Source: Spirochaetia bacterium
GTDB lineage: Bacteria > Spirochaetota > Spirochaetia > SZUA-6 > Bin103
NCBI GenBank assembly: GCA_965208575.1
Contig: CBDBOV010000004.1
Coordinates: 1,184,001 to 1,248,000 of the forward strand
DNA: 64,000 bases
Direction: 5' to 3'
Both the position numbers and the translations under genes were made by a program. The notes beneath the pieces are model-generated. The model saw only the letters and a list, made by a program, of their open reading frames with translations. It was not told where the DNA came from and made no database searches. Numbering within the stretch: position 1 is the stretch's first letter; each line of letters starts with the position of its first letter. Shown in pieces: positions 1 through 47,739 of the stretch.

Positions 1-1041
1 CGCGATCACGTTGCCGACCGAACCGGTCTCGTCGAGCTTGGTCACGATCACGCTCTCGTAACCGAATGGCTCGAACTGCCGCACGATCTGCAGCAGGTCG
101 GCTCCCTTCGTGGTCGCGCTTACCACGAGTTGGGTGGTGGCGCCGTGGCCCATCGCATCGAGCACGCTCCGCATCTGTGCGATGCGCGCGTAGTCGGTGG
201 GACTGCGGCCCACGGTGTCGACGAATATGACGTCGGCGTCGCTGCCGAGGGCGATCGCCTTGCGCAACTCATCGGCGGTCTCGGCGGTGGTCACCGGAAT
301 ACGCATGATGTCGCCGTACGTTTCGATCTGCGCTCGTGCCCCGATGCGGTAGTTGTCGATGGTCACGATGCGTACCGGCGGCGCCGGCACACCGTTGCCG
401 AATCCGTGCAGCGCCGCCAGCTTGGCGATCGTGGTGGTCTTGCCGACCCCGGTCGGACCGACCAGGGTGCACACGCGCGGGCCGTCGGCCGGGGCGGGAA
501 GCTGCTGCAGCGGCGGTGCGATCTTCAGCTCCGCGGCAATCTGCCGCACCACGAACCGGTGTACCGCGCCCTGATCCCGCAGGCTGGACACCGGCAGTTC
601 GGTGCGCACCGCGTCGATCAGGCGGCCGCGCATCGGCGCCGCGAAGTCGTTGGCCGCGAGCAGCGCGCGCAACTCGGCGAGGGACGGGTGATCGTCGCGC
701 CGCACGGTCACTTCCGATCCGGGCGGAAGCGATTCGTCCAACCGCTCCCGCAACGCCGCAACCTCGCCGAGCAGCCGGGCAAGACTGGGTGCCTGCTGCG
801 CCCGCGCCGCCTCGCCGGCGACCGCGCGCGGCGCGCCGTCGTCCGCGGGCGGCGTGGTGGCGTCCGGCGGCGTGCCGTCGACGTAACCGGTAATCTCCAC
901 GGCCGGACGCGCGAACAGCCCCAGCACGCCGCCGACGCGAACCGTGCGGTGGGACTGGATGCAGGCGTCGGGGCCGTACTTCCGCATCATCTCCGCCAGC
1001 GCCGCCTGCGAGTTGGCGCCGCGTACCGTGAAATAGCGCAT
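1..1041 (-). CDS. flhF: Flagellar SRP-family GTPase FlhF (runs off window start)
   Basis: Not in ORF track; translated by hand from ATG at 1041: MRYFTVRGANSQAALAEMMRKYGPDA...GGVLGLF...VEITGY; P-loop [28 protein letters not shown]; follows flhA. Confidence 0.93.
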   Translation of the reverse strand, partial: MRYFTVRGANSQAALAEMMRKYGPDACIQSHRTVRVGGVLGLFARPAVEITGYVDGTPPDATTPPADDGAPRAVAGEAARAQQAPSLARLLGEVAALRERLDESLPPGSEVTVRRDDHPSLAELRALLAANDFAAPMRGRLIDAVRTELPVSSLRDQGAVHRFVVRQIAAELKIAPPLQQLPAPADGPRVCTLVGPTGVGKTTTIAKLAALHGFGNGVPAPPVRIVTIDNYRIGARAQIETYGDIMRIPVTTAETADELRKAIALGSDADVIFVDTVGRSPTDYARIAQMRSVLDAMGHGATTQLVVSATTKGADLLQIVRQFEPFGYESVIVTKLDETGSVGNVIA

Positions 1042-1045
1042 CCCC

Positions 1046-3013
1046 TCAGCGCTCCTCTGCCCGGCCGCCCGCGGCGAGTCCCGACACCTCCGCGAGGCGG
1101 CGCACGGAGCGGGCGGCCGCCACCTCGCTGGTCGCCAGGCACACCAGGTCGGGTATGCGGCGCTCGGTACTGCGCTTCACCAGCGGCCGCACTTCCTCGG
1201 AAGCCAACACCGCCGGCCGGCAGTCCTGCCGCGCACTCTGCCCGAGGGTGGCGGCCAACTCCTCGACCCAGCGGCCGAACTCCGCCGCGGCGCCCGGCCG
1301 GAGGTCCTGCCCCGCCTGCGCGGCCAGCAGCTCCCGCTCCAGCTCCGGCGCCAGCGTGACCACGTGCAACACGCCCTGCGCGTCGCTGTGCTGCGCGCTG
1401 ATCTGGCGGCCGAGCGAGCGCCGCACCCGGCGCACCAGGTAGTCCACGTCGCGCTGCCGGCCGGCCTCGTCCGCGAGCGTCTCCAGTATGGTTACCAGGT
1501 CGCGGATCGATACCCGTTCACGCAACAGCCCCTGCAATACCGCGCGGATCTCGCCCACCGACAGCGCCGCGGTGGCCTCTTCCACCACCGTCGGACAGCT
1601 CTCGCGCAATTCGTCGATCATCGCCCGCACCTGGTCGCGGCCGAGCAGTTCCGCCGCGTGACGCATGAGGACGGCGCGGAACTGCCCCACCAGGGTATCC
1701 ACCGTGTCGGAGCAGCCGGCACCGGGACGGCAGCGTCCGCCGCCGGCTTCGACACCGCGAATCTTGAACCGGTACGCGGTGGGCGGAAGCTGCAGGTTGT
1801 CGGTAACGTGCAGCGCCGGCACCTGCAGCCCCCAGTCGCGCGCCGCCCGGTCGCGTACGCCGCGGGCGCCGCGCAGCAGCTCGGCGCCCGCATTCCCGTC
1901 GGTCGCCGCCAGCAGACCGTACCCCAGTTCCAGCGCCAACGCCGGCGGCAGCGCAGGCGCGGCCCCGCCGGCAGGGTTCGGCGCCGCCGTTGCCCCCGCG
2001 TCGGACGTCGGCGGCGCTGCTTCGGTACCAGGATTGCGCCGGCCGACCGCGCGGCCCAGCCCCGCCACCGCGCCGGCCAGCGGCAGCAACAACCAGGGCG
2101 GGAACCCGGGCAGCAGGCCGAGCAGGGCGAGAAAGCCGGCGGTGACGTAGAATGGACGGTCGTAGCGGGCGAGCTGCAGCGCGGCGTCGATCCCGAACGG
2201 CTGGTCCGAGGCGGCGCGCGTAACGATGATGCCGGTGGCGGTGGAGACGAGCAGCGCGGGAAGCTGGGTTACCAGCCCGTCGCCGATGGTCAGTGCGACG
2301 TAGTGATGCGCCGCGGATGCCAGGTCCTCGCCGTGCACGCTGACGCCGATGATGAAGCCGCCGGCGAGATTGACCGCGGTGATGAACAATGCCACCCGCA
2401 CGTTGCCGGCCACGAACTTGGAAGCACCGTCCATGGCACCGTAGAAGTCCGCCTGGCGCTGCAACTCCTGCTGCCGGAGCCGCGCCTGCGCCTCGGTGAG
2501 CCGCCCGGAGTGGTATTCCGCGTCGATCGCCATCTGCCGGCCGGGCAGGGCGTCGAGCGTGAAGCGCGCCGCCACCTCCGCCACCCGGGTCGATCCGCGC
2601 GTAATCACCACCACCTGCACGGCGATGATGATGATGAAGATGATCAGGCCGATCACCACCCCCGCGGTGCCGGAAGATCCGACCACGAAACTGCCGAACG
2701 CGCGCACGATGCGGCCGTCGAAGGCGGCCCCCTGCGACAGGATCAGCCGCGTCGAGGAGACATTGAGCGCCAGCCCGAACACGGTGGCCAACAGCAGCAA
2801 GGTAGGGAAGCTGCTGAACTCGGCGCTGTTGCGCACACTCAGCACGACCAGGATCACCAGCAGGCTGATGCCTATGTTGAGCGCCATGCCGAGGTCGAGC
2901 AGCACGGCCGGCAGCGGAATCAGCAGCATCAGCACCGCGACGCACACGAACACGGCGACCAGCGCGTCGCCGCGCTGCAGCCAGGCGCCGGAGGGATTGC
3001 CGGCCCTGCTCAT
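1046..3013 (-). CDS. flhA: Export gate protein FlhA with an internal deletion in the cytoplasmic domain
   Basis: FSSFPTLLLLATVFGLALNVSSTRLIL, RVAEVAARFTLDALPGRQMAID, FYGAMDGASKFV, LTIGDGLVTQLPALL, ERVSIRDL; start ATG 3013 overlaps flhB stop. Confidence 0.95.
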   Translation of the reverse strand: MSRAGNPSGAWLQRGDALVAVFVCVAVLMLLIPLPAVLLDLGMALNIGISLLVILVVLSVRNSAEFSSFPTLLLLATVFGLALNVSSTRLILSQGAAFDGRIVRAFGSFVVGSSGTAGVVIGLIIFIIIIAVQVVVITRGSTRVAEVAARFTLDALPGRQMAIDAEYHSGRLTEAQARLRQQELQRQADFYGAMDGASKFVAGNVRVALFITAVNLAGGFIIGVSVHGEDLASAAHHYVALTIGDGLVTQLPALLVSTATGIIVTRAASDQPFGIDAALQLARYDRPFYVTAGFLALLGLLPGFPPWLLLPLAGAVAGLGRAVGRRNPGTEAAPPTSDAGATAAPNPAGGAAPALPPALALELGYGLLAATDGNAGAELLRGARGVRDRAARDWGLQVPALHVTDNLQLPPTAYRFKIRGVEAGGGRCRPGAGCSDTVDTLVGQFRAVLMRHAAELLGRDQVRAMIDELRESCPTVVEEATAALSVGEIRAVLQGLLRERVSIRDLVTILETLADEAGRQRDVDYLVRRVRRSLGRQISAQHSDAQGVLHVVTLAPELERELLAAQAGQDLRPGAAAEFGRWVEELAATLGQSARQDCRPAVLASEEVRPLVKRSTERRIPDLVCLATSEVAAARSVRRLAEVSGLAAGGRAEER

Positions 3014-4140
3014 TGCGGCCACCGCACGCCTCCGAAACGCGCGCCGACGCCGGGCTCGCGGCGGTCGCGGCTCGCCGCGCCGTGCGCCGCCAGCATCGCG
3101 GCCACCGCCGGCTCGTACGACCGCGGGATGGGGTCGCCGAGCGCGACGCGGCGAAACAGGGCGCCGGCCAGCGCCGCGCGTTCGATCACGGCCACGCCGC
3201 TCGACTCGGCCGCCTGCCGCATCCGCGGTGCGCTGTCGGCAGCCGCCTTGGCGACCACCACCGGCGCGGTCATGGTGTCGGGGTCCCACCGCAAGGCCAC
3301 CACGGTACGCGCCGCGTCGGCGCACACCACGTCCGCGGCCGCGACCTGCTCGGCGGCCGTGCGCGCGAGCAGTGCGCGCGTGCGGGCGCGCAACCGATCG
3401 CGCACCATCGGGTCGCCCTCCTGCAGGCGCCGTTCCTCGCGCTCCCGTGCCACCGAACGGTGCGCCCGCCGGCGGGCGCGGAAATTGCGCAACAGGTAGT
3501 CGGCCGCCGCCAGCAGCAACAGGGCACCCGCCGCCTGCACGGCCAGGCGCAGCGCCGCGCCGTACGCCGCCTCGGCCATGGCTGCGCCGGCCGCGATCGC
3601 GCGCAGCGCGGCGCCGATGTTGAGCACCGCGATCACCGCCACCCCGCCCACCTTGAGCAGTTCCCGGCCGAGGCCGATCGCGGTGTCTGCCGACCACAGC
3701 CGGCGGCCGACGCGTCCCCAACTCGGGGTGATGCGGTGCCAGCGCGGCGTCACGCTTCGCAACCTGATCGGCAAACCTTGCTGGACGAGATGTCCGGCCA
3801 CGGCGCCCGCGATCGCTGCCGCCAGCAGCGGCGCCGCCAGCCGGCCCGCATGGCCGAGCGCCGCCGGCAGCAGGCCGGCCAGCGCGGCGGCGTCGCCCGC
3901 GGCCGCCACGCGACCGAAGCACAGGCGCAGCAATTCGCCGCCGGCGGCGGCGATGGCGGGGCCGGTCAGCGCCGCCGCGCCAATCCCGGCCAGCAGGATC
4001 ACCGCCGCGGTCACCTCCGGCGAGCGCACCGGCTCGGCGGAGTCGCGGGACGCACCGGCGCGCGCAGCGGACGCGCGCAGCCGATCGTCGGCGCCGGCCC
4101 GCCCGCCGCCGACGAGAGCGGACCGGAACGCGCCGCTCAC
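3010..4140 (-). CDS. flhB: FlhB-like export gate protein, divergent, no NPTH motif
   Basis: SPEV near N-terminus, ELLKV, EGDP, ADVV...VALRWD...MTAPVVVAK, LAGALFRRVALGDPIP; lies between fliR and flhA. Confidence 0.9.
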   Translation of the reverse strand: MSGAFRSALVGGGRAGADDRLRASAARAGASRDSAEPVRSPEVTAAVILLAGIGAAALTGPAIAAAGGELLRLCFGRVAAAGDAAALAGLLPAALGHAGRLAAPLLAAAIAGAVAGHLVQQGLPIRLRSVTPRWHRITPSWGRVGRRLWSADTAIGLGRELLKVGGVAVIAVLNIGAALRAIAAGAAMAEAAYGAALRLAVQAAGALLLLAAADYLLRNFRARRRAHRSVAREREERRLQEGDPMVRDRLRARTRALLARTAAEQVAAADVVCADAARTVVALRWDPDTMTAPVVVAKAAADSAPRMRQAAESSGVAVIERAALAGALFRRVALGDPIPRSYEPAVAAMLAAHGAASRDRREPGVGARFGGVRWPQ

Positions 4141-4970
4141 GGCACCGCTCCCGCGCCCGCCGGCGGCGTGGCCGTCAGCCCGTCCAGCATCCGGCGCAGC
4201 GTGGCAAAGCCGTCGTCGAGCGCCGCCGCGGCGGCGCTCAGCAGCAATGGCAGCGTGACCAGGAGGATCACCAGGCCGGCGCCGAGCGACAACGGCAGCC
4301 CCAGCATGAGCAGGTTCATGTGCGGCGCGACGCGCGCGAGCAGGGCAAGCGCGAGTGACACCAGCAGCAGTGCCGCGAATATCGGCAGCGCGATCGCCAT
4401 GGCGGTGCCGAACAGGCGCGCAAGGCTGCCCGCCACGGTGTGCAGCAGCAACCCGGCGCCGCGGCCCGTGCCGGCCGCGAAGCTCACCACCAGGTCGGCG
4501 GCGCGCAGGGCGTGAAAGGAACCCGCCACGCCGTCGAGCATCAGCCGGTGCAGTCCGCCCACCGACAGGAACGCCATCACGGCGAGCACGTGGAACAACT
4601 GGCCCAAAAGCGGAGAACGGCCCGCGGTGAACGGATCGAGCAGCTCGACCACGCCGAACCCGACGGGCAGCGAGATGAACGCGCCGGCGGTCTGCAGGGC
4701 GGTGAACCCCAGGAGCACCAGGAAGCCGAGCAGCACACCCACGAGCGCCTCGCCGAGCAGCAGCAACGCGAACTGTACCCCGGACGCCGGTACCGGGTAG
4801 CCGCCGGCGATCACCCCGGGCAGCGCTACCACGGCGATGAACAGCGCCAGCCCCAACCGCCCCGGTTGCGGAATGGCCGCCGACGAGAACAGCGGCGCCA
4901 CCTGCATCATCGCCACCACGCGCGCCAACACCAGCAGCCCGATCCCCAGGTCATCGGCAAGCAGCCGCAT
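4137..4970 (-). CDS. fliR: Export gate protein FliR
   Basis: LARVVAMMQVAPLFSS, GEALVGVLLGF, DPF, LARVAPHMNLLMLGLPL; lies between fliQ and flhB. Confidence 0.93.
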   Translation of the reverse strand: MRLLADDLGIGLLVLARVVAMMQVAPLFSSAAIPQPGRLGLALFIAVVALPGVIAGGYPVPASGVQFALLLLGEALVGVLLGFLVLLGFTALQTAGAFISLPVGFGVVELLDPFTAGRSPLLGQLFHVLAVMAFLSVGGLHRLMLDGVAGSFHALRAADLVVSFAAGTGRGAGLLLHTVAGSLARLFGTAMAIALPIFAALLLVSLALALLARVAPHMNLLMLGLPLSLGAGLVILLVTLPLLLSAAAAALDDGFATLRRMLDGLTATPPAGAGAVP

Positions 4971-5245
4971 CACGGCCTCGCCGCCATGGCCGGGATGCTC
5001 TCGAACAACCGGGTAGTGAAGTCGATCATCGACGCCCCCAGCCACGGGCCCAACAGCAGGGCGACCCCGATGACCGCAAAGATCTTCGGCACGAAGGACA
5101 GCGTCTGCTCCTGGATCGAGGTGGCAGCCTGCACGATCGACACCACGAGCCCCACCAGCACGCTCGCCACCATCAGCGGCGCCGCCAGCACGAGGAGCTG
5201 CAGCACCGCCTCGCGCGCCAGGGTCACGACGGTACCGAGCGTCAT
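4970..5245 (-). CDS. fliQ: Export gate protein FliQ
   Basis: VGLVVSIVQAATSIQEQTLSFVPKI signature. Confidence 0.96.
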   Translation of the reverse strand: MTLGTVVTLAREAVLQLLVLAAPLMVASVLVGLVVSIVQAATSIQEQTLSFVPKIFAVIGVALLLGPWLGASMIDFTTRLFESIPAMAARP

Positions 5246-5256
5246 CGCCGCCGCCA

Positions 5257-6102
5257 TCAGCGGAAACTCTCGATCAGTTGCATGACCAGCAGATCCCAGC
5301 CATCGACCAGTACGAACAGCACCAGCTTGAACGGCAGCGAAATGAGCACCGGGGGAAGTACGATGATCCCCATCGAGATCAGCGTGGTGGCCACCACCAT
5401 GTCGATGATCACGAACGGAATGAATATGAGCACGCCTATTTTGAATGCCACGGTGAGCTCATGCAGAATGAACGCCGGGATCAGGATGTAAGTGGGCACG
5501 TCGGCGCGCGTGTTCGGCTTGGGCAGATCGCGCATGCTCATGAACAGGCGGATGTTGTCGGCGTCGTTGCCGAGCTGGCGAAACATGAATTCGCGTACCG
5601 GGGCCTGGGCGCGTTGCAACAGCTCCTGCCCGTGCAGCTCGCCGCGCGAGAACGGCTGCAGGGCGTCGCGGTTGATCGCCTCGAAGGTCGGCCACATGAT
5701 GAACGCGGTCAGAAACAGGGCTACGCCCATCAACACCTGGTTGGGCGGCATGTCGGTGAGCGAAAGCGCGCGCTTCACGAACTGCAGCACGATGGCAAGG
5801 CGCAGGAACGAGGTAGTCAGGATCACGATCGACGGCGCCAGCGACAGCACCGCGAGCAGCAGCAGCAACTGCAGCGACAGCGCCAGCTCCTGATTGGTGT
5901 ACGCGTCGCGCAGGCTGAGGTCCAGGAACGGCACGCTGCTGACGGCCGGCGCCGCGGCGGCTGCGATGCCCGCGGCCGCGGCAGCCGCCGCGTCGGGCGC
6001 GGGCGCCGGCGTCTGCGCCGCCACCGGGGCGGCGATGAGCAACGCCGCGCACAAGGCCGCGCCGGCGGCAGCACGGCGGCGCAGGATGCTAGGTAGCCGC
6101 AC
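5257..6102 (-). CDS. fliP: Export gate protein FliP
   Basis: LSLAPSIVILTTSFLR, PPNQVL, IPAFILHELTVAFKIG, ISLPFKLVLFVLVDGW; probable GTG start at 6102 after GGAGGAAGAGG; signal-peptide-like N-terminus. Confidence 0.96.
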   Translation of the reverse strand: MRLPSILRRRAAAGAALCAALLIAAPVAAQTPAPAPDAAAAAAAGIAAAAAPAVSSVPFLDLSLRDAYTNQELALSLQLLLLLAVLSLAPSIVILTTSFLRLAIVLQFVKRALSLTDMPPNQVLMGVALFLTAFIMWPTFEAINRDALQPFSRGELHGQELLQRAQAPVREFMFRQLGNDADNIRLFMSMRDLPKPNTRADVPTYILIPAFILHELTVAFKIGVLIFIPFVIIDMVVATTLISMGIIVLPPVLISLPFKLVLFVLVDGWDLLVMQLIESFR

Positions 6103-7036
6103 GGACCTCTTCCTCCACCGCCGGGGTGCGGCCCAGGCGGCGCGCGCGATCCCGTTGGCGGGGCGCCCGATCACCCAGGCGGCGCGCTCGATCCCGTTGG
6201 AGGGGCGCCCGATCCCGTTGGAGGGGCGCCCGATCCCGTTGGAGGGGCGCCCGATCCCGTTGGAGGGGCGCCCGATCCCGTTGGAGGGGCGCCCGATCCC
6301 GTTGGAGGGGTGCCCGATCCCGCTGGAGGGGCGCCCGATCACCCAGGCGGCGCGCCCGCTCCCGCTGCCGGCGCAGGAACGCGGTGTGGCCGGAGTCCGC
6401 GCTGCGCGCATCGGAGGGCGTGCCGATGCCGGCCTCGGCGAGCAGGTCGGCAAACCGGCTGCGCGCGGAAGCGCCCTGCCCGGCGGGGTGCGCCGCGAGC
6501 CGATCGAGGCGCTCGGGATCGGTGATCTCGGCCACCAGGTTTACCGCCTGGTCGCCGGCTCCCACCAGGTAGTAGCCGCCGGCCGCACGCACCAGGTGCA
6601 GGCTGCGGTTGCCGCCGAGCGAACGCGAACCGAGCACGGCGATCAGCTCGCTGTTGCCGAGCCGGCCCGCGGCGCCGCGCCGGAAGAGCCGGAACAGCAG
6701 GTAGATCGCGCCGAGCACCGCGGCAAGCACCACCACCATGCGCACGAAGTCGCCGGTCGAGACCACGCCGCCGGCCGCGGCGCCGGAGGTGCGGCCGGCC
6801 TCGGGCAGCGGCGTCGCGTCGACCGGCGGCGCGCCGGCAACCGACGCCTGTGGCTGCGGTTGCGGCTGCTGCGCGGACAACGGACACACCGCGACCAGCA
6901 GCGCGCCCGCGATCAGCAGCGCCGGAGCACCGATGGCAGAGCGCCGCGCACGCTTGGTCGAAGCGCGGGCGGCTGTCGCGTTGTACAGGTCTGTTCCCCT
7001 CCCAGGAACGCAGCCTTGCGTCCTTTCCTTCGCCAT
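6089..7036 (-). CDS. fliO: FliO (spirochaete FliZ) with a C-terminal heptad repeat expansion; start uncertain
   Basis: TM segment DFVRMVVVLAAVLGAIYLLFRLFRR then VLGSRSLGGNRSLHLVRAAGGYYLVGAGDQAVNLVAEI; directly upstream of fliP. Confidence 0.85.
   Translation of the reverse strand: MAKERTQGCVPGRGTDLYNATAARASTKRARRSAIGAPALLIAGALLVAVCPLSAQQPQPQPQASVAGAPPVDATPLPEAGRTSGAAAGGVVSTGDFVRMVVVLAAVLGAIYLLFRLFRRGAAGRLGNSELIAVLGSRSLGGNRSLHLVRAAGGYYLVGAGDQAVNLVAEITDPERLDRLAAHPAGQGASARSRFADLLAEAGIGTPSDARSADSGHTAFLRRQRERARRLGDRAPLQRDRAPLQRDRAPLQRDRAPLQRDRAPLQRDRAPLQRDRAPLQRDRARRLGDRAPRQRDRARRLGRTPAVEEEVRAAT
6147..6356. repeat. Compound 21-bp tandem repeat, 10 units (7 consecutive CGATCCCGTTGGAGGGGCGCC-type units at 6189-6335)
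   Basis: Read directly; unit A encodes DRAPLQR and unit B (CGATCACCCAGGCGGCGCGCT) encodes DRARRLG on the minus strand. Confidence 0.97.
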
Positions 7037-7044
7037 CGCCGGCG

Positions 7045-7953
7045 CTATCGGTCTCTCCCCCCGGAGTCAAGAATCTCCGTGACCCGGATGCCGTAACTGT
7101 CTTCCAATGCCACGACCCGCCCGCGCGCGACCGGCTCGCGGTTCATCTCGATCGCGACCGACTGGCCGGCGAATCGACTCATGCCGATTACCATGCCCTC
7201 GTCGAGGGCGGGCGCGCCGCCGCTGCGCAGCCCGCCGGCGCCCAGTTCAACGGTCACCATGGCATCGGCGCGAGCGGCGCGCGACGGTCGCGGCGGCGCC
7301 ACTTCGCGGGCCAGCAAGCGGTGGCCGATCGCCGCCAGACTTGCCTCCGCCACCGCCAGGTACAGTTGGCCCTCCTGTCCGCCGGCGGCCGCCGCGAAGG
7401 TGGCGCACACCAGCCGGGTGTCCGGCGCCGGCAGTTCGGTGGTGTCGGCCTGCCGCTCGAGGTACTCGAGGCGCGGTACGACGCCGCACACCGGCGCCCA
7501 CGCGCGCTGCAGGTCGGGCAGCAGCGCCGCGATGCCGCGCCGCAGCACCATGCCCTCGATCTCGCTCAAGCCGCGCTCCGGCACCATGGGTACGCCGCGC
7601 CCGCCCAGCAGCCGGTCGATCAGCAGGAATGCAAGCACCCGGTCGACGGCAAACAGCGCCGCCCCCGGCAGCGGGTCGAGCGCCACGCCCGCCAGCGCCG
7701 CCGGCGCCCACCGGGCTCGCAGTTCACTGCATGACCGGCGCTCCGCCGCGGCAAGCCGAACCCGGCACGGCGTGCGCACGAGCGTGCTGAGCGACTCGGA
7801 GGCGAAGCGCGCGAATCGGCGATGTACCGCGCTCACGATGGCGACCTGCTCGCCGGCCAGCGGCCCCGCGCCGGACGGCAAACCGCCGGGGGGCATACTG
7901 CCGGACGGCATACTGCCGGACGACCAGCGGTCATGCGGCACGCCCTCACCCAT
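7045..7953 (-). CDS. fliM: C-ring protein: FliM middle domain fused to a FliN-type SpoA domain; start uncertain
   Basis: VHRRFAR...LSTLVR, DPLPG, IDRLLGGRG, RGLSEIE, AWAPV (FliM); C-terminus VTVELG...AGQSVAIEMNREPVARGRVVALEDSYGIRVTEI (FliN-like). Confidence 0.85.
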   Translation of the reverse strand: MGEGVPHDRWSSGSMPSGSMPPGGLPSGAGPLAGEQVAIVSAVHRRFARFASESLSTLVRTPCRVRLAAAERRSCSELRARWAPAALAGVALDPLPGAALFAVDRVLAFLLIDRLLGGRGVPMVPERGLSEIEGMVLRRGIAALLPDLQRAWAPVCGVVPRLEYLERQADTTELPAPDTRLVCATFAAAAGGQEGQLYLAVAEASLAAIGHRLLAREVAPPRPSRAARADAMVTVELGAGGLRSGGAPALDEGMVIGMSRFAGQSVAIEMNREPVARGRVVALEDSYGIRVTEILDSGGRDR

Positions 7954-8080
7954 CGGCGCCCCCGGCGCCCGGCCGGCAAGGCGCGACGAATGCGCACACC
8001 GGTGGTACGCGAGCGGGGAGCAACGCAGCCAGCCGGGAGGGATCGCCGCGTTCATGCAGCCGGAGTTGCGCCATCGGCTG

Positions 8081-9718
8081 CTAGTCCTCGACCAGCCACC
8101 GGCGCAGCGCGCGCGCCGCGTCTTGCGGTCGCCGGCGGGCCAGGTGCTCGGCGCTGCGGCGCATCTGCTCCTGGTCCGCCAGGCCACCCGGTCTCCCGGT
8201 CCCGAACACCCGCGTCGCGCTGCTCAAGCGCGCCGTGCCGCCGGCGGCGCGCGCCGCCCGGCGGCGGCGCTGCCGCCGGCGCACCACCACGACCAGGGCG
8301 AGCAGCAGCAGCGCGGCGGCCGCCGCGGCGGCCGCCGGCAACATGCTCAGCAGCCATGCCTCCCGGCGCAGCAGCACGTCTTCCTGCGCGAACTGACTGC
8401 TGCGGTCGAACTGCAGATGCTCCACCGTGACCGAGTCGCCACGCTGCCGGTCCCAGCCGATGGCGTCCTGAACCAGCAGCGTCGCCTTGCGCAACTCGTC
8501 GCCGGGAACCGGGGTGTACGTGCGCCGCACGCTGCCGTCCTGGTTCAGGGCGACGCCGCCGTCGGGCCGGAACTCGGTGCGCCACACGCCGTCGAGGGCC
8601 ACGCTCACCGTGATGCGGTTGATCGCCCAGGGGCTCTCCTCGCGCACCGTGTTGCGCCGGTTCACCACCTCGCTGCGGCTCGTCGAGCGGCGCTCGTAGT
8701 GCTCGCCGGCAGCGCCGTCGCCGCTGCTCCTGGTCTCCGTCTCCTCGTCCTCGGCGACCGTGATCGAGGGCACCCGCAGCGCTTCGTCGGCGTCGGTGAG
8801 CGGATCGTCCTCGCGCAAGGCGATCGGGAAATGCTCCTCCGTGGTGGTCGACTGCGAAGACAGGTCGAGGTCGATGTCGAGGCGGACGATCTGCACCCGG
8901 TCGGCGGAGAAGATATTGCCGAGGGCGGCGACGATTTCCCGCGTGTAGCGCTGCTCCAAGCCGTACTTGGTATCCAGTTGGCGCTCCACCAGGGTCATCC
9001 GGCTGCGTCCCGAAACGCCGCCCGGATCGTTCACCTGGACGCCGCGAGGATCGAGGATCACGATGTGCTCGGCGCTCAGGCCGGCCACCGCAAACTGTAC
9101 GAGCCGCTGGATGCCGTGCACCCGATGGTGGTCGTCGAGAATCCCGGAGCCCTGGCGGGGCGTTATCACGATGGAAGCGGTGGTAGGGAGTTGATCCTCC
9201 GCGAACAGTTCGCGTTCCGGCACTACCAGGGTGACGTGGGCGGCGGCGACGTCGTCGAGCGCCTCGAGGTGCTGTTCGAGGCTGCGCGTGAGGGCGCGCT
9301 GAAGGTTGACGCTGCGTTCGAAGTCGGTGACCGAGAATCGCCCGAGGTCGAATATCGAGAACGGGTCGGTTTGCGAGGGTACCAGGTCTTCGCGAATCAG
9401 GATGCCGCGCAACCGGCGCGCCGAGTCCTGGTCGGACACGAAGATGCGGTCACCGGCGCGGATTTCGTACTCCACGCCTTCCTGATCGAGCCGGCCGGCG
9501 ATGCGCAGCAGTTGCCCGGCGTCCTCGACGGGGGCATTGATCAGTGGCACCATCCGCACACCGGCGTTCAATGGCCCGCCCTCGCGTGATGCCCCGATCA
9601 ACCCAGCGGCGACCACCGCGACGGCGAGCGCGCCGCCGAGCGACCAACGCTGCGCCCCGGTCAATCTGCCCCAAAAGCCAAACGCCTGTTGCCGCATACG
9701 CGGCAGTACGTCGAGCAT
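8081..9718 (-). CDS. fliF: MS-ring protein FliF
   Basis: DPFSIFD...TDFERSVNLQRAL, HLEALDDV, FAEDQLPTTASIVITP, GIQRLVQFAVAGL, RITVSVALDG, AIGWDRQRGDSVTVEHLQFDR, C-terminal RRWLVED; RBS GGAGGGG before ATG 9718. Confidence 0.95.
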   Translation of the reverse strand: MLDVLPRMRQQAFGFWGRLTGAQRWSLGGALAVAVVAAGLIGASREGGPLNAGVRMVPLINAPVEDAGQLLRIAGRLDQEGVEYEIRAGDRIFVSDQDSARRLRGILIREDLVPSQTDPFSIFDLGRFSVTDFERSVNLQRALTRSLEQHLEALDDVAAAHVTLVVPERELFAEDQLPTTASIVITPRQGSGILDDHHRVHGIQRLVQFAVAGLSAEHIVILDPRGVQVNDPGGVSGRSRMTLVERQLDTKYGLEQRYTREIVAALGNIFSADRVQIVRLDIDLDLSSQSTTTEEHFPIALREDDPLTDADEALRVPSITVAEDEETETRSSGDGAAGEHYERRSTSRSEVVNRRNTVREESPWAINRITVSVALDGVWRTEFRPDGGVALNQDGSVRRTYTPVPGDELRKATLLVQDAIGWDRQRGDSVTVEHLQFDRSSQFAQEDVLLRREAWLLSMLPAAAAAAAALLLLALVVVVRRRQRRRRAARAAGGTARLSSATRVFGTGRPGGLADQEQMRRSAEHLARRRPQDAARALRRWLVED

Positions 9719-9795
9719 GTTCCCCTCCCACGGCACGGATCGACTTGCCGCCGCCGCAGGGTAGACGGCCGCGGACAAGCCCTTCCGGTACCATA

Positions 9796-9824
9796 GTTAT
9801 GCGTGAGCGGCGCGCTATTGTCAA
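9796..9824 (-). promoter_or_regulatory. Sigma70-like promoter upstream of fliF
   Basis: Minus strand TTGACA (9819-9824), 17 bp, CATAAC (9796-9801); -35 is perfect, -10 is weak. Confidence 0.55.
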
Positions 9825-41126: not shown

Positions 41127-41974
41127 CAGCCGGACGCCGACGCGACCGGCTGCCGGTTGGGCGTGCGCTCCAACAGGCACTGCGGCCACACGATGGAGCG
41201 CCGGCGCGGCGTGAGCCGGTCCAGCAGTGCCGGCGACGGCTGGTAGCCGTGCCGGAAGTTGCCCCACGACGGCCCGTAGCGGTTCACCAGGATGCGGCGT
41301 TCGCCCGCGTTCTCGCGCCGCGCCGAGCCGTGCGTGCAGCAGTCCACGAACAGCAGCGCATCGCCGGCGCGCAGGTGCACTTCCAGGCTGCCCTCGATCC
41401 GCTCCGCCGACGGCCGCTCTTCGACGCCCATCGAGTAGGAGGTAAAGTCGGGATGCTCGAAGTTGCTCTTGTGGGAGCCGGGAATCAGCACCGTGCCGCC
41501 GTCGCCGGGGCCGATGTCGGTGAGCGCAACCAGGACGTTGATCTGGTTGCAGTGGAACTTGCCGCCGAGGTAGCGGAACTGACAGCGGCTCAGCCCCAGG
41601 TGGCCGCCGTTGTGCAGGCCGATCGCCTCGCCCGGACCGCGGAAGTTGACGAAGTTCTCGTCGATGAACAGCGGCCCGTGGTGCTCGTCGAAGCTGTGTT
41701 CGCCGCCGACGAAGTGGCGCACCTTGTCGAACCAGGAGGGATGGTCGATGAGGCGCTCGAACGGTGCGCCCGCCTCGTAGATCTGCTGATAGTTCAGCCC
41801 GTCACGGTCGCCGAAGGTGTGCGCGTGCACGTAGCCGTACCACTCGCCCACCTGCAACCGCGGCATGGCGTCGAGACAGTCGTTCAGGTCCTGCACTTCG
41901 CCGCGGGACAGGGCCCCCTGCAGGACGAGAAACCCGCGCAGATCGAAGAAGTAGATGTCGCGGTCGGTCACCAT
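41126..41974 (-). CDS. Phytanoyl-CoA dioxygenase (PhyH) family protein
   Basis: FFDLRGFLVL, ALTDIGPGDGGTVLIPGSHKS, AGDALLF...HGS. Confidence 0.88.
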   Translation of the reverse strand: MVTDRDIYFFDLRGFLVLQGALSRGEVQDLNDCLDAMPRLQVGEWYGYVHAHTFGDRDGLNYQQIYEAGAPFERLIDHPSWFDKVRHFVGGEHSFDEHHGPLFIDENFVNFRGPGEAIGLHNGGHLGLSRCQFRYLGGKFHCNQINVLVALTDIGPGDGGTVLIPGSHKSNFEHPDFTSYSMGVEERPSAERIEGSLEVHLRAGDALLFVDCCTHGSARRENAGERRILVNRYGPSWGNFRHGYQPSPALLDRLTPRRRSIVWPQCLLERTPNRQPVASASG

Positions 41975-42111
41975 ACGCCGACGGATGGTAGGGACAGCCT
42001 CCGCGCGCCGTCAAGGGCGCCCAACCTGGCAGTGACTCGCCATGCCGCACGCTGCTGCGCTGGAATCCGAGCCGGGCAGCGGCGGCGCTTCCAACACGGC
42101 CATCGATGCCG

Positions 42112-43395: not shown

Positions 43396-43740
43396 ATTTC
43401 TTGACGCCGACCGTCTGGCTCACGGATATACGGGCGTCAGAGACGCTCAGAAGTCATTTGCCGAGCCGGGTGATGCCGCCCACGCCGCGAGCGGCGCGCA
43501 GGTTGCTGCGGAGCGCACGGAGCGAGGCGCCCCGGACAACTGCACCGAGGTGCGTTGCCCGGGGCAGGGTCATGACAATTCCCCACCGCCGGGACGGGGT
43601 AGGCGACGAGGTTGCGACACCGGAGCCGTCGGGATCGAACGGGGCGGAGGAGATGCTGTACCCCGCTGACGGACGGAGGGCGTAGCCCGACCGGAGTCAG
43701 CCGGCGCGGTGCCGTGGAGGCCACCGTGGACGACGCCGAG

Positions 43741-45285
43741 ATGGCGGACCAGGCAGCCAAGCTGCTCGCTTCCGGGATGAGCGGCTCAGCCTGCGCTCGC
43801 GAACTCGGCATCCCGGTGAGCACCTTCAACGAGAACCGCCGCGCCGGCGTCATCACAGATCCCACCCGGGAGCCCGCCGCCAGCGCCGAGGTTGCGCCGG
43901 CGGCCACCACCACTGATCACCCGGTCAGCACCGCCGCCGCGGTCAGCGACCCGGCGGTCGCCACTGAGCGCGCCAGCCGCGACGCCCGCGACAAGCACGC
44001 GCCCATGGGCCGCGCGGCGCGCGACGTGGAACGCCGCACGCTCGCCAGAGCCGGCCTGCTGACCGAGGCCACACCAGCGTTCGTCGAGCCCGCCCACGCG
44101 GTCGCTGGCGGCGGCGTGCTGGCCGCACTGGCGATGCTGCTGCGCGAGGGCCTGCTCACCGCCGCCAACCGCCTGTTCCGCCTGCCGGCCGGATTCTACG
44201 GCCTGACCACCATCCTCCTGTTCGTCGCCTGCATGACCCTGGCCCGGGTGCGCAACCCCGAGAGCCTGCGCTACCAGGCACCCGGCGAGTGGGGCGCCAT
44301 CCTCGGCCTCGACCGCTGTCCGGAGACCAAGACGCTGCGCCGCAAGATCAGGCTGCTGGCCAGCGCCGAGCACACCGTGCGCGATTGGCAATCGGTACTG
44401 GCGCGTACCTGGGCCAGCGAGCACGACGACGACTGGACGACGCTGGCCGTGGATGGCCACGTGAAGGTGTACACCGGGCGCAACGGGCGGTTGCCGAAAC
44501 ACTTCGTCGCACGCCAGAAGCTGTGTCTGCCGGCGTCGGTGAGCTACTGGATCAACGCCCTCGGCGGCGCACCGCTGCTGTGCCTGCACAAGGCGCTGGA
44601 CCCGAAGCCGGTGAATGCGATCAAGCACGACGTGGTGCCGCAGTTGCAGCACCTGGGGGTGGTGACCGAAGCGGCCCCCGACCTGACCGGAGCACCGGCC
44701 GGTACCCCGCAGCTGACCCTGGTGTTCGACCGCGAGGGCTGGAGCCCGGACCTGTTCAAGCGCCTGGCCCGGCGTGGCATCGCCTGCATCACCTGGCACA
44801 AGAACTTCAACGGCGCGGACTGGCTGCCGGAAGACTTCCACACCTTCGAGGTACCGATCCATGGTCCCGCCGGCACCAGCACGACTGCGGTTGATCTGGC
44901 CGAGCAGCCGATCATGCTGCGCAACGGGCTGGTGGTGCGCCAGATCCGGCGGCGTCTGGCCAACGGTCGTCAGGTGGCGGTGATCACCACGCACCCGCAG
45001 ATGCCGTTGGCGCAGGTCGCCGGCGCCATGTTCTCGCGCTGGTCGCAGGAGAACTTCTTCAAGTACCTGCGCGAGCAGTTCAACCTTGACGCGCTGCCGA
45101 GCCATGACCTTGCGCCGCCGGAGCCCGACGCACGGGTCGTGAACCGGTGCGCCGGGCCCTGGAAAAGAGCATCAGGCGGGTACGCAGCCGGCTGGCAGCG
45201 GTCCGCAATCGCCTCGCCGAGGCACTGCAGGGACGGCACCGGGACTCCGCCACCCGGCTTACGGTCGCGGATAAAGTTGCACTGA
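43741..45285 (+). pseudogene. Broken DDE transposase of a second family (frameshifted and truncated)
   Basis: HTH (ARELGIPVST), PGEWGAILGLDRCPETKTLRRK, VDGHVKVY, VFDREGWS, FSRWSQENFFKY; frame breaks near 45145 (continues RRALEKSIRR in another frame) and ends near 45270. Confidence 0.8.
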
Positions 45286-45303
45286 ATTGCATGGTTATGC
45301 ATA

Positions 45304-45367
45304 GACACGGGGGTATCCAGACACCACCTCGTGTCGTGGAGGGGCCTTACAGCGCGGCTGAGGCGAC
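45304..45367. repeat. Copy B of the 64-bp structured direct repeat, just 3' of the intact transposase
   Basis: GACACGGGGGTATCCAGACACCACCTCGTGTCGTGGAGGGGCCTTACAGCGCGGCTGAGGCGAC. Confidence 0.92.
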
Positions 45368-45427
45368 GTTTTCTCATCGCTGACCGCCCATTCTCCGATT
45401 ATCGACCGTCAGACCCGCCTGAGAGGG

Positions 45428-46702
45428 TCATTTTGCCGTGCGACCGCTGCCACCACGCTCCTCGCTCGGTGTTTGCACCGTGCTTGGTGCGGCCTTGGCG
45501 GTCTTGCTGACGTTCAGCTGCAGCAGATCCTCGGTCAACCTGGTCAGCTCGCGCTTGAGGGCGACCGGATTCAACGTCGCGTACTGCTGCTTGAGGCGGT
45601 TCTTCACCTTCTCGCTCACCGACTCGGAGGCCAGCATGCGGTGATACGGCGTCTGCGGGTCGTCATAGATGCGGCGCACCTTGCTGCCGGTGCGGGTTTT
45701 CTTCACCAGCTTCACCGAGGGATAGAAGAAGTTCACCAGCAGGCACAGCGGGCGGTATATCGCGTTGAGGGCAGCCAGTTCCCGGTCGGTGTCGTAACGC
45801 AGGTGGCCGACCGCCCGTCGCACCACGTGGCCATTCTTCTGCTCGACGTAGCAGGTGTCGTTCTTGCGATGCGGGCGACCCCGAGTGAACGTGATGCCGT
45901 GCGCTTCGCAATAGCGCAGCAAATGATGATTGATGAACTCGCTGCCGTTGTCGGTGTCGATCCCCCGCATCACGATCGGCAGGCTCTGCCGGGCAGCGTC
46001 GATCGCCTCGTGGGTCCAGCGCTGCGCCTTGTTCTGCACGCCGTACAGGTCGACCCAGCCGGTGTCAACGTCGGTGATGGTGAGCGTGTGGCAGAAGTCG
46101 CCTGACGCGTTGCCGCCTTCATGGCCCACCAAGTCGATCTCGAAGAAGCCCGGCTCCTGCTCGTCCCAGTCAGCGAAGGTTCGGATCGCGATCTGATCCT
46201 TCAGGAGGGTGCCCGGCTTGGTGTGCGTGCGACCCTTCAGGCGCAGCCGTGCGCGCTCCTGCTGCAGCAGCCGGTCGATGGTCGCGGCGCTGATGGTCTG
46301 CAGCTTGCCGCGCACCGCTGCGGTCAGCTCGATCTCGCCGAACGACTCCAGCGTCGGCAGCATGGTGCGCAGCACGACCACCAGGCGCTTGCCGCACATG
46401 CAGTCGAACACGTACCAGATCAGCTTCAGAGCGACCAGCACCTCCTGGTCGTAGCGCCGCGGTCGCACGCGGCGCTGGGCAGGCCGCGGACGCCCGACCA
46501 CCAGCTTCACCAGTGTGCCGTCGACTCGCACCATGCGGGTCCGTCCCCACCAGGTCAACAGATGGATCGCGTACTTGCGCTGGTACCCGGTCGACTCGAC
46601 GAACTCGTCGAGTATGCGCCCCTTCTCCTTCTTGCCCGCCCGACGATACCGCTGCGCGTGCTGCTCGGTGAGCTCTCGCCTTGAACTCATCTTCAACCCC
46701 AT
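45428..46702 (-). CDS. DDE transposase with integrase core (ISNCY-like), intact
   Basis: RYRRAGKKEKGRILDEF, CGKRL, ISAATIDRLL, PGFFEIDLVGH, DTDNGSEFIN, RKND.CYVEQKN. Confidence 0.92.
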   Translation of the reverse strand: MGLKMSSRRELTEQHAQRYRRAGKKEKGRILDEFVESTGYQRKYAIHLLTWWGRTRMVRVDGTLVKLVVGRPRPAQRRVRPRRYDQEVLVALKLIWYVFDCMCGKRLVVVLRTMLPTLESFGEIELTAAVRGKLQTISAATIDRLLQQERARLRLKGRTHTKPGTLLKDQIAIRTFADWDEQEPGFFEIDLVGHEGGNASGDFCHTLTITDVDTGWVDLYGVQNKAQRWTHEAIDAARQSLPIVMRGIDTDNGSEFINHHLLRYCEAHGITFTRGRPHRKNDTCYVEQKNGHVVRRAVGHLRYDTDRELAALNAIYRPLCLLVNFFYPSVKLVKKTRTGSKVRRIYDDPQTPYHRMLASESVSEKVKNRLKQQYATLNPVALKRELTRLTEDLLQLNVSKTAKAAPSTVQTPSEERGGSGRTAK

Positions 46703-46878
46703 CTCCTCCGGAACCTCCTCACGTCCCTCGGAGAGGCTCCAACCGGACCCGGAAGGTCCAGCCCGTTCGGTTAGATTTTTAGATGAGGCATGCTTTCGCT
46801 ACGGTTAGATTTTCGATGAGTCAATGCGCGCTGTTGACGCGGGCGGCGCTCGGCGCGATGCTGGACGGCGAGACCGAC

Positions 46879-47739
46879 ATGTTGACTGCAAAGCAGGTAC
46901 GGCAGTACCACGACGACGGCTACCTGGCGGTACCGGATGTTCTCAGCGGCGACGAGGTCGCGGAACTGCAGCGTGTGACCGACGAGCTGGTGGAAGCCAG
47001 CCGGAACGTCGGCGCGCACACCGAACTATACGACCTGGAACCGAGCCACTCACCCGCCGAGCCGCGTGTGCGGCGCCTCAAGAGTCCCAACCTTCACCAC
47101 GACGTATACGACCGCACGCTGCGCCACGCCGCCATCGTCGCGATCGTGGATCAACTCATCGGCCCCGGCGTGCGCTACCAGTCCACCAAGCTGAACATGA
47201 AGTCGGCCGGTTACGGGAGCCCGGTGGAGTGGCACCAGGACTGGGCGTTCTACCCGCACACCAACGACGACATCCTGGCGGTGGGCGTGGCCATCGACGC
47301 CATGACCGAGGACAACGGCGCCATGATGGTGGTGCCGGGCAGCCACCGCGGGCCGCTGTACGATCACCACCAGGACGGCTACTTCGTGGGCGCCGTGACC
47401 GACCGCGACGTGGACCCGGGGGAGGCGGTGCTGCTGGAGGTTCCGGCCGGCGGCATCTCCCTGCACCACGTGCGCACCCTGCACGGCTCGGCCCCCAACC
47501 GGTCGTCGCGGCCGCGACGGCTGCTGCTGCTGGAAATGTGCGCCGTCGATGCCTGGCCGCTGGCGAGGCCGGTGGAGTGGGAGTCGTTCAACGGCCGCAT
47601 TCTGCGCGGCGCGCCGACCAACACGCCGCGGGTCACGCCGGTGCCGGTGCGCATCCCCCTGCCCAACCATGAGCGCCAGGGATCGATCTACGAGGTGCAG
47701 AGCAAGCTGGCCGACCCGGTCCTCGCGGGAGCCGGATAG
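46879..47739 (+). CDS. PhyH family dioxygenase
   Basis: YHDDGYL, KLNMK, WHQD (HxD), VVPGSH, LHGSAPNRS. Confidence 0.93.
   Translation: MLTAKQVRQYHDDGYLAVPDVLSGDEVAELQRVTDELVEASRNVGAHTELYDLEPSHSPAEPRVRRLKSPNLHHDVYDRTLRHAAIVAIVDQLIGPGVRYQSTKLNMKSAGYGSPVEWHQDWAFYPHTNDDILAVGVAIDAMTEDNGAMMVVPGSHRGPLYDHHQDGYFVGAVTDRDVDPGEAVLLEVPAGGISLHHVRTLHGSAPNRSSRPRRLLLLEMCAVDAWPLARPVEWESFNGRILRGAPTNTPRVTPVPVRIPLPNHERQGSIYEVQSKLADPVLAGAG

Follow-up and report, generated by a model that had tools for sequence, protein, structure and literature searches.

FlhA without subdomain D2 in a probable relic flagellar export core from sponge-associated spirochaetes that lack flagella

The flhA gene and its missing subdomain

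The DNA analyzed here, referred to as the window, is a stretch of 64,000 nucleotides (nt) from a Spirochaetia bacterium (assembly GCA_965208575.1, contig CBDBOV010000004.1, positions 1,184,001 to 1,248,000), and positions are counted from its first letter. Its beginning carries a cluster of flagellar genes on the minus strand, among which flhA encodes an FlhA protein whose cytoplasmic domain (FlhAc) lacks subdomain D2. An in-frame deletion at the four residues AGCS had been proposed from the letters alone (the original prediction), and the open reading frame (ORF), a split Pfam match, a break against solved chains and a gap in the alignment of relatives all bear it out. The parts of the gene are as follows.

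1046..3013, minus strand: flhA, 655 amino acids plus stop; Pfam FHIPEP, E 3.5e-191; start set at MSRAGN.
2039..3013, minus strand: FlhA transmembrane domain, about residues 1-325; 56-58% identity to canonical relatives; holds the next two motifs.
FlhA residues 151-164, minus strand: FTLDALPGRQMAID, transmembrane-region motif, located in the ORF.
FlhA residues 190-201, minus strand: FYGAMDGASKFV, transmembrane-region motif, located in the ORF.
1049..1996, minus strand: end of the linker and FlhAc, residues 340-655; D1 uninterrupted by the D2 insertion, D3 and D4.
1721-1768, minus strand: FKIRGVEAGGGRCRPG, residues 416-431, directly before AGCS.
1709..1720, minus strand: junction AGCS, residues 432-435, in the place of D2 (about 47 residues in relatives).
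1637-1708, minus strand: DTVDTLVGQFRAVLMRHAAELLGR, residues 436-459, directly after AGCS.

FlhA scores 637.5 bits with FHIPEP and so passes the curated cut-off of 29.1. The GTG and ATG starts further upstream would give extensions that overlap flhB, and the guanine-cytosine (GC) content by codon position (0.75/0.51/0.90) agrees with what a normal gene has in this 70%-GC genome. The FHIPEP profile is matched in two parts, positions 2-405 and 450-654, which are separated by just 6 nt of DNA. In total the protein is shortened by about 43 residues, corresponding to D2, an insertion inside D1; as had been claimed, the motifs DPxFGLPAxWI and GYTVVD, both present in relatives, are gone with it. A phmmer search against solved FlhA chains gave the same picture: in 12dv_B, which matches best (E 6.5e-155), residues 436 to 491 stand opposite 431 to 444 of the query, and the alignment also breaks at the D2 position against the 692-residue chain 36hw and against 7amy. 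Counted along the alignment, AGCS substitutes for roughly residues 436-482 of 36hw; we take the published limits of D2 to be residues 435-483. FlhA aligns end to end with the solved chains, and the predicted retention of the transmembrane region and the later cytoplasmic subdomains was also found. The N-terminal polytopic membrane domain is kept with its loop motifs, the equivalents of R147, R154, D158 and K203 (numbering counted from the solved-chain alignment) are conserved, and three of the four cytoplasmic subdomains, D1, D3 and D4, are present. According to passages in PMC9431611, FlhAc consists of D1-D4, with Phe-459 as part of D2; the D1-D2 interface holds a conserved hydrophobic dimple that receives chaperone-substrate complexes, and during filament assembly the FlhA linker contacts D1 and D2 of the adjacent subunit.

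We then compared 41 genomes: the one carrying the window (hereafter the own genome), 10 others from its genus (g1), 13 from the sister genus (g2) and 17 from seven other families of the order. The FlhA query matched 30 of the 41. Nine of the 10 g1 genomes gave a match, seven of them in one co-linear piece, and all 17 genomes of other families did so in two parts that are separated by about 160 nt of additional DNA. After MAFFT alignment with the FlhA of 19 relatives, a gap of 43-49 columns was seen in all 9 g1 sequences, and D2 was present, with DP(A/T)FGL...W and GYTVVD, in all 10 other-family sequences. Two g2 proteins, from G012 and G015, match the full FHIPEP profile (2-656) and therefore keep D2.

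Public sequencing runs from 12 studies contain the stretch, and most of these runs are metagenomes of sponges, coral reefs and the sea. A Logan contig of 1616 nt from run X4, which belongs to a separate study, covers positions 1300-2200 with 7 substitutions and without gaps, and one of 506 nt from X1 is identical over 1332-1837, across the junction; no indels or joints at the window are listed among the Logan contigs aligned. One might suspect a mis-assembly or binning artefact, as the own genome is a metagenome-type assembly (95.2% complete, 5.75% contamination). The identical gap occurs, however, in nine further g1 genomes, several of which are single-contig chromosomes, and contigs from independent studies cross the junction with no indels reported, so that the deletion is not an artefact; we regard such an origin as extremely improbable. 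The D2 deletion is thus confirmed as real: the segment is deleted rather than diverged, and both relatives and independent contigs support the junction.

FlhAc is predicted to fold confidently as D1-D3-D4. The AlphaFold2 model of residues 340-655, built with a 33-sequence FlhAc alignment as input, has a predicted local distance difference test (pLDDT) score of 86.2 and a predicted template modelling (pTM) score of 0.83. In the model the strands and helices of D1 pass into the post-D2 helix via a short loop, and the junction block of 10 residues has a pLDDT of 72. The top Foldseek matches are FlhAc crystal structures (3mix, 6ch2, 6ai0, 6ch1 and 3a5i; template modelling scores 0.73-0.78), with SctV structures ranking below, so the structure prediction suggested as a check gave an FlhAc lacking D2 and otherwise of the expected fold. 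The same 33-sequence alignment has 33 invariant columns, and the D2-less members keep all 33.

The gene upstream of flhA is also altered, at the following site.

3307..3321, minus strand: ADAAR, FlhB residues 274-278, at the NPTH self-cleavage site of relatives (by alignment).

None of the g1 FlhB proteins has NPTH; they read ADAAR, ADPAR, AAAAR, AHGER, THGGR, TGGAR or ADGRR, while NPTH is kept in all canonical relatives of the FlhB alignment. The FlhB change is thus in line with that in FlhA, as had been supposed, and since both D2 and NPTH are gone, both devices of the late-export switch are lost.

The reduced flagellar cluster and the genes around it

The genes that accompany flhA in the window are listed below, with G037 as the flagellated relative for comparison.

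1..1041, minus strand: flhF, 5' part (the gene leaves the window at its start); Pfam SRP54; tblastn 39% to the FlhF of G037.
3010..4140, minus strand: flhB, 376 amino acids, diverged; Pfam Bac_export_2, 186.5 bits against 386.1 in G037.
4137..5045, minus strand: fliR; Pfam Bac_export_1.
4970..5257, minus strand: fliQ; Pfam Bac_export_3.
5257..6453, minus strand: fliP, conserved part about 5260-5940; Pfam FliP, 238 bits; start uncertain from an upstream repeat.
6089..7066, minus strand: fliO/fliZ-like ORF, stop to stop, start uncertain; Pfam FliO, E 2.8e-12.
7045..8223, minus strand: fliM, stop to stop, diverged; FliM middle and FliN-like C-terminal domains, 85 bits against 287 in G037.
8081..9796, minus strand: fliF, stop-to-stop ORF; Pfam YscJ_FliF and YscJ_FliF_C; synteny with G037.

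By Pfam, G037 has the classic spirochaete arrangement ftsZ-xerC-...-dprA-topA-xerD-hslV-hslU-flgB-flgC-fliE-fliF-fliG-fliH-fliI-fliJ-orf-fliK, continuing as flgD-flgE-motA-motB-fliL-fliM-fliN/Y-fliO-fliP-fliQ-fliR-flhB-flhA-flhF-flhG-orf-fliA. The window keeps this order and orientation for ftsZ, xerC, dprA, hslU, fliF, fliM, fliO, fliP, fliQ, fliR, flhB, flhA and flhF. FlhA thus stands in a flagellar neighbourhood (fliPQR-flhB-flhA-flhF), and fliF directly follows hslU, with flgB-flgC-fliE absent between them. The reduced cluster of ten genes, followed by sigma-orf145-M23 peptidase, was also found in G001, G007, G009 and G010. The repeat upstream of fliP is a 21-nt tandem repeat at 6142-6340 (9.5 copies, 90% matches). 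It falls towards the 3' end of the fliO-like ORF, where it reads DRAPLQR, whereas in the upstream extension of fliP it reads GIGRPSN.

We searched the whole own genome by tblastn with 29 operon proteins of G037. Matches were obtained for hslV, hslU, fliF, fliG, fliM, fliO, fliP, fliQ, fliR, flhB (31% identity), flhA, flhF and the sigma factor (73%), and none for flgB, flgC, fliE, fliH, fliJ, fliK, flgD, flgE, motA, motB and fliL. Moreover, flhG gave only weak matches on a different contig (E about 1e-5, 25-29% identity), fliI matched solely genes of the ATP-synthase type, and fliN/Y solely the FliM C-terminus.

Family searches across the genomes agree with these losses. Flagellin_N and FliS each have no match in the own genome and a match in only one of the 23 other genomes of the family (G002), against 17/17 in other families, and FlgN is found in 0/24 family genomes against 17/17 (11 above cut-off). 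The expected absence of flgN and fliS therefore holds for the reduced family. For FliT no match above cut-off was obtained, flagellated kin included, which makes this search uninformative. FliD_C occurs in 0/3 genomes of the reduced family, the own one included, and in 2/2 canonical kin; the N-terminal family of rod and hook proteins (PF00460) in 0/8 reduced g1 genomes, again including the own one, and 0/1 g2 genome; and both FliI above cut-off and the signalling domain of chemoreceptors in 0/5 genomes of the reduced family. With D2 gone, the late-substrate docking site has indeed been cleanly removed from FlhA, as the original prediction had it.

The searches show that filament, hook, rod and motor are gone from the lineage, along with the ATPase complex, the late chaperones and the chemoreceptors, and that it retains FliF, FliG, FliM, FliO, FliP, FliQ, FliR, FlhB, FlhA and FlhF, mostly at the ancestral operon position. 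The own genome thus lacks what a working flagellum needs (flagellin and cap; rod, hook and FliE; the MotA/MotB stator; FliH/I/J), and it has the composition called 'CORE-only', with FliP, FliQ, FliR, FlhB and FlhA present and the filament, hook and rod genes missing. A flagellum locked in the early export mode, which the changes in FlhA and FlhB might bring to mind, is ruled out, because early substrates, ATPase and motor are gone as well; the genes therefore form a relic core.

The retained fliG stands alone, far from the cluster (L062:8640-9683, on G000:C5). It is full length, with N, M and C domains, and its neighbours, genes for an RRM protein and DUF1223, are unrelated; fliG is present in 4 of 5 genomes tested, the exception being G011 of the sister genus. 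A FliA-like sigma factor is kept beyond the window, downstream of flhF (G000:C4:1182801-1183610; L063:12801-13610). It is 73% identical to that of G037 and strongly constrained, with a ratio of nonsynonymous to synonymous substitution rates (dN/dS) of 0.05-0.07, though flhG and most flagellar genes are gone; its regulon must therefore have changed.

Selection on the kept genes was estimated by the Nei-Gojobori method, pairwise against two genomes of the same genus. The lowest dN/dS was found for fliP (0.12-0.14), followed by fliQ and fliR (0.20-0.24), fliF (0.21-0.26), flhF (0.22-0.26) and flhA (0.22-0.31; transmembrane part 0.15-0.26, cytoplasmic part 0.27-0.29), and higher values for fliM (0.31-0.42), fliO (about 0.4) and flhB (0.43-0.54). 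The controls hslU, hslV and sigma gave 0.05-0.09 and two non-flagellar neighbours 0.17-0.38. The ORFs are intact across the genus down to an FlhA identity of 58%. With dN/dS of 0.12-0.54 against 0.05-0.09 in the controls, the kept flagellar genes evolve under selection that is purifying but relaxed.

These values bear on the idea that the cluster is a functionless remnant, whose genes are decaying and have not yet acquired stops, the D2 deletion being one lesion among many. Selection is relaxed, most strongly in flhB, fliM and fliO, FlhAc diverges fast, further truncations occur in G009/G010 and G012, and FlhA is retained patchily in the sister genus, all of which would fit such decay. However, ten genes remain open, in frame and syntenic at FlhA identities down to 58% and synonymous divergences (dS) of 0.4-0.9, the dN/dS of fliP stays at the low value given above and that of the FlhA transmembrane domain at 0.10-0.26 in closer pairs, and no family-invariant FlhAc column has been given up. 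We therefore hold a functionless remnant to be quite improbable.

D2-less FlhA proteins in other lineages and known systems

To our search with the FlhAc part (HMMER against 1.84 billion representatives) 4382 sequences responded at E<=1e-3. We examined the best 150 of these 4382, five cluster members and the query, 156 in total, of which 147 span both flanks of D2. The D2 span (52 states) holds 50-83 residues in 130 of the 147 and only 4-16 in 17, made up of 11 representatives, the five cluster members and the query itself; because the search favours D2-less proteins, 17/147 is not a frequency. In a FastTree phylogeny of 152 sequences the D2-less forms branch next to D2-bearing proteins in no fewer than five separate positions, and the clade of four to which the query belongs has a D2-bearing sister (support 0.91). 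One metagenome lineage is represented by 80 loci, 75 of which span both flanks, 10 without and 65 with D2. The 10 D2-less loci (L064-L070, L073, L090 and L095) form an unrelated clade with full-length, membrane-bound FlhA on contigs of about 62% GC, nested among the 65 D2-bearing relatives; their gene context is uninformative. As D2-less FlhA is found in several unrelated metagenomic lineages, D2 loss is recurrent, as expected for a separable insertion domain.

Some other D2-less proteins are of a different build. P0007, P0150, P0040, P0058 and P0078 are soluble FlhAc-like proteins without D2 or FlhB-C-like fusions; in the fusion type, an FlhB-C-like domain without NPTH is joined to one or two D2-less FlhAc-like domains. 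P0150, a soluble FlhB-C/FlhAc fusion, has no orthologue in 151 Spirochaetota genomes, its sole match being a canonical FlhA in one of them. FHIPEP is present in 397 of 401 Spirochaetota genomes (best 150 matches listed), and the per-genome table shows 19 with a weak or split best match. Fifteen of these 19 were re-searched (all except G432, G087, G180 and G401); they show contig-end splits or frameshifts, and none lacks profile positions 405-450.

Known systems can be compared with the window in four respects. First, canonical FlhA (Salmonella, Bacillus and Borrelia; FHIPEP) shares with the query the eight-helix transmembrane domain with its motifs, the linker, D1, D3 and D4 and a gene position between flhB and flhF, and the best sequence and fold matches of the query are flagellar FlhA proteins. 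In contrast to canonical FlhA, the query lacks D2, so that the D1-D2 dimple is without the half that D2 contributes (Asp-456/Phe-459 region, Salmonella numbering), and its genome is without the partner ATPase complex, the chaperones and all known substrates.

Second, injectisome SctV proteins (InvA, MxiA, YscV, EscV and CdsV) belong to the same family and have the same overall cytoplasmic fold. However, the SctV match is far weaker than that to FlhA (E 3.3e-83 against 6.5e-155) and the synteny is flagellar; moreover, SD2 is treated as a regular part of SctV in the SctV papers found.

Third, the natural D2-less FHIPEP proteins (P0020; the P0035/P0151 clade, to which the loci L064-L070, L073, L090 and L095 belong; P0076; P0145; and the soluble P0007, P0040, P0058 and P0078) likewise have 4-16 residues between intact flanks. 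They are 29-36% identical to the query and take separate positions in the FlhAc tree beside D2-bearing proteins, and some, unlike membrane FlhA, are soluble FlhAc-only proteins or FlhB-C-like fusions.

Fourth, in the reduced sets of the Buchnera aphidicola basal bodies, the Lysobacter enzymogenes FT3SS and the 'CORE-only' Myxococci, Chloracidobacterium and Succinatimonas the export-gate genes also outlive the filament; Buchnera keeps hook and rod genes. Here, by contrast with the sets of other non-motile bacteria, the lineage belongs to Spirochaetota, the classic flgB-to-flhF operon has been cut down in place, no FliI/H/J, rod or hook is left, and FlhA itself is remodelled. Retention of the export gate after filament loss, with a suspected non-motility function, is treated in parts of PMC8109811, PMC7688988 and PMC6456723 (section 12). 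[quoted passage not shown] In the open-access literature searched we found structural and genetic work on D2/SD2 only, with no description of a natural D2-less FlhA and no report of D2 loss in the reduced flagellar systems of non-motile bacteria; PMC10746217, on the flagella of Actinobacteria, has nothing on relic export cores. Reduced fT3SS cores as such were already known, and what is new in this one is that its FlhA has been remodelled in structure.

Origin and possible role of the reduced core

On the whole, we consider it likely that the window records a real, old, in-frame loss of FlhA D2, and that the affected protein is part of a relic flagellar type III export core kept by sponge-associated spirochaetes without flagella. 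D2 and D1 would together form the hydrophobic dimple for FliS-, FlgN- and FliT-substrate complexes, and D2 would also aid the switching of the FlhA ring between open and closed forms. If late substrates and their chaperones were lost first, D2 may have become jobless and been deleted, and the FlhB cleavage switch may likewise have become dispensable after the late substrates were lost. More speculatively, the remnant of MS ring and C ring, together with the export gate, might still assemble in the inner membrane and be useful without docking chaperones. Its most likely job would be the export of non-flagellar proteins into the periplasm, driven by the proton motive force and independent of chaperones; alternatively, it might be a 'CORE'-type platform in the membrane.

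Several observations weigh against a relic core of this sort that is old and still maintained. In G009 (L012/L039) and G010 (L011/L034) D3-D4 of FlhA are lost as well, and FlhA matches only profile positions 2-406, with the transmembrane domain, the first part of D1 and a short post-junction helix; the other genes of the reduced cluster are still there. The sister genus has FlhA in just 3 of 13 genomes, so that some members of the family do without the system, which may be slowly decaying. Where present, the g2 set is reduced to a comparable core of fliF, fliO, fliPQR, the transmembrane part of flhB, and flhA, and G012 has neither fliM nor flhF and an FlhB without its C-terminal domain. The median FlhAc identity is 40% between D2-less and canonical proteins, whereas canonical proteins share 65% with one another and those of the D2-less genus 53%; this fast divergence clearly points to relaxed selection. 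At L069, the sole locus of the unrelated D2-less clade that shows FlhB, the cleavage motif is only altered (NPSQ against NPTE in kin), and this one locus suggests that loss of D2 and of NPTH need not be coupled. Two short contigs of the sponge metatranscriptome X19 run over the junction without gaps at about 93% identity, and may reflect DNA carry-over.

The last of these observations concerns G002, a genome of 510 contigs (81% complete) labelled as the same genus. Three flagellins and FliS are encoded in it, and hslV-hslU-flgB-flgC stands where one of its contigs ends (L151 = G002:C79; L145-L148); its flagellar contigs have a GC content of 62-66%, as in its largest contigs. Its HslU is 74% identical to that of the window, compared with 83-91% in the reduced g1 genomes and 67% in g2 and G037; its FlhA was not found in the 510-contig, 81%-complete assembly. 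G002 looks like a flagellated sister lineage. If its taxonomy is right, g1 and g2 would have arrived at a similar core by separate flagellar reductions.

Such a parallel would also suit a reading in which positive selection did away with both D2 and the switch in FlhB, giving a constitutively open, chaperone-independent exporter or a nanotube or 'CORE' platform, re-tooled for new cargo of a non-flagellar kind in symbiosis with the sponge. In its favour, the core lies at the same locus in at least five closed or near-closed genomes with dN/dS below 1, the Pfam scores of FliP, FliQ and FliR nearly reach those of flagellated kin, g2 arrived at a similar core, perhaps independently as G002 suggests, and both 'CORE-only' genomes and roles of the fT3SS core beyond flagella have already been proposed in passages of PMC6456723, PMC9380563 and PMC7688988. 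The cluster contains, however, no cargo and no new partner genes, the loss of FlhAc as a whole in G009 and G010 is contrary to a docking-platform function, and 10 of the 13 sister-genus genomes are without FlhA; we judge adaptive re-tooling to be unlikely.

Returning to the relic core with secondary loss of D2, its continued use as a minimal exporter is a possible but doubtful extension. Such an exporter, free of ATPase, rod and chaperones, would consist of the MS ring, FliG/FliM, FliOPQR, an uncleavable FlhB, the D2-less FlhA and FlhF, and selection would keep it in spirochaetes symbiotic with sponges, either for periplasm-directed, proton-driven, chaperone-independent export or as a membrane or nanotube platform. 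If this were true, the stripped-down intermediate that has been postulated to link flagella with other type III machines would have a living example here, and the recurrent loss of D2 would signal the same transition in other lineages.

Current models of late-substrate recognition and specificity switching give D2 and the D1-D2 dimple a central place, and D2 loss is here found to have occurred repeatedly. A long-lived D2-less FlhA, together with an FlhB that would not cleave itself and the absence of the ATPase, offers a natural experiment on which parts of the gate stay under selection without ordered assembly. It also adds a host-associated spirochaete to the question of what export cores do in non-flagellated bacteria.

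Elsewhere in the window there are three dioxygenase genes of the PhyH family (41129-42010, 46783-47736 and 58437-59192) and two transposase/integrase genes (43603-46798). On the plus strand, positions 60551-62002 encode a protein of 484 amino acids consisting almost entirely of ankyrin repeats. Ankyrin-repeat proteins are common in sponge symbionts, and the gene fits the sponge metagenome runs in which the stretch is contained.

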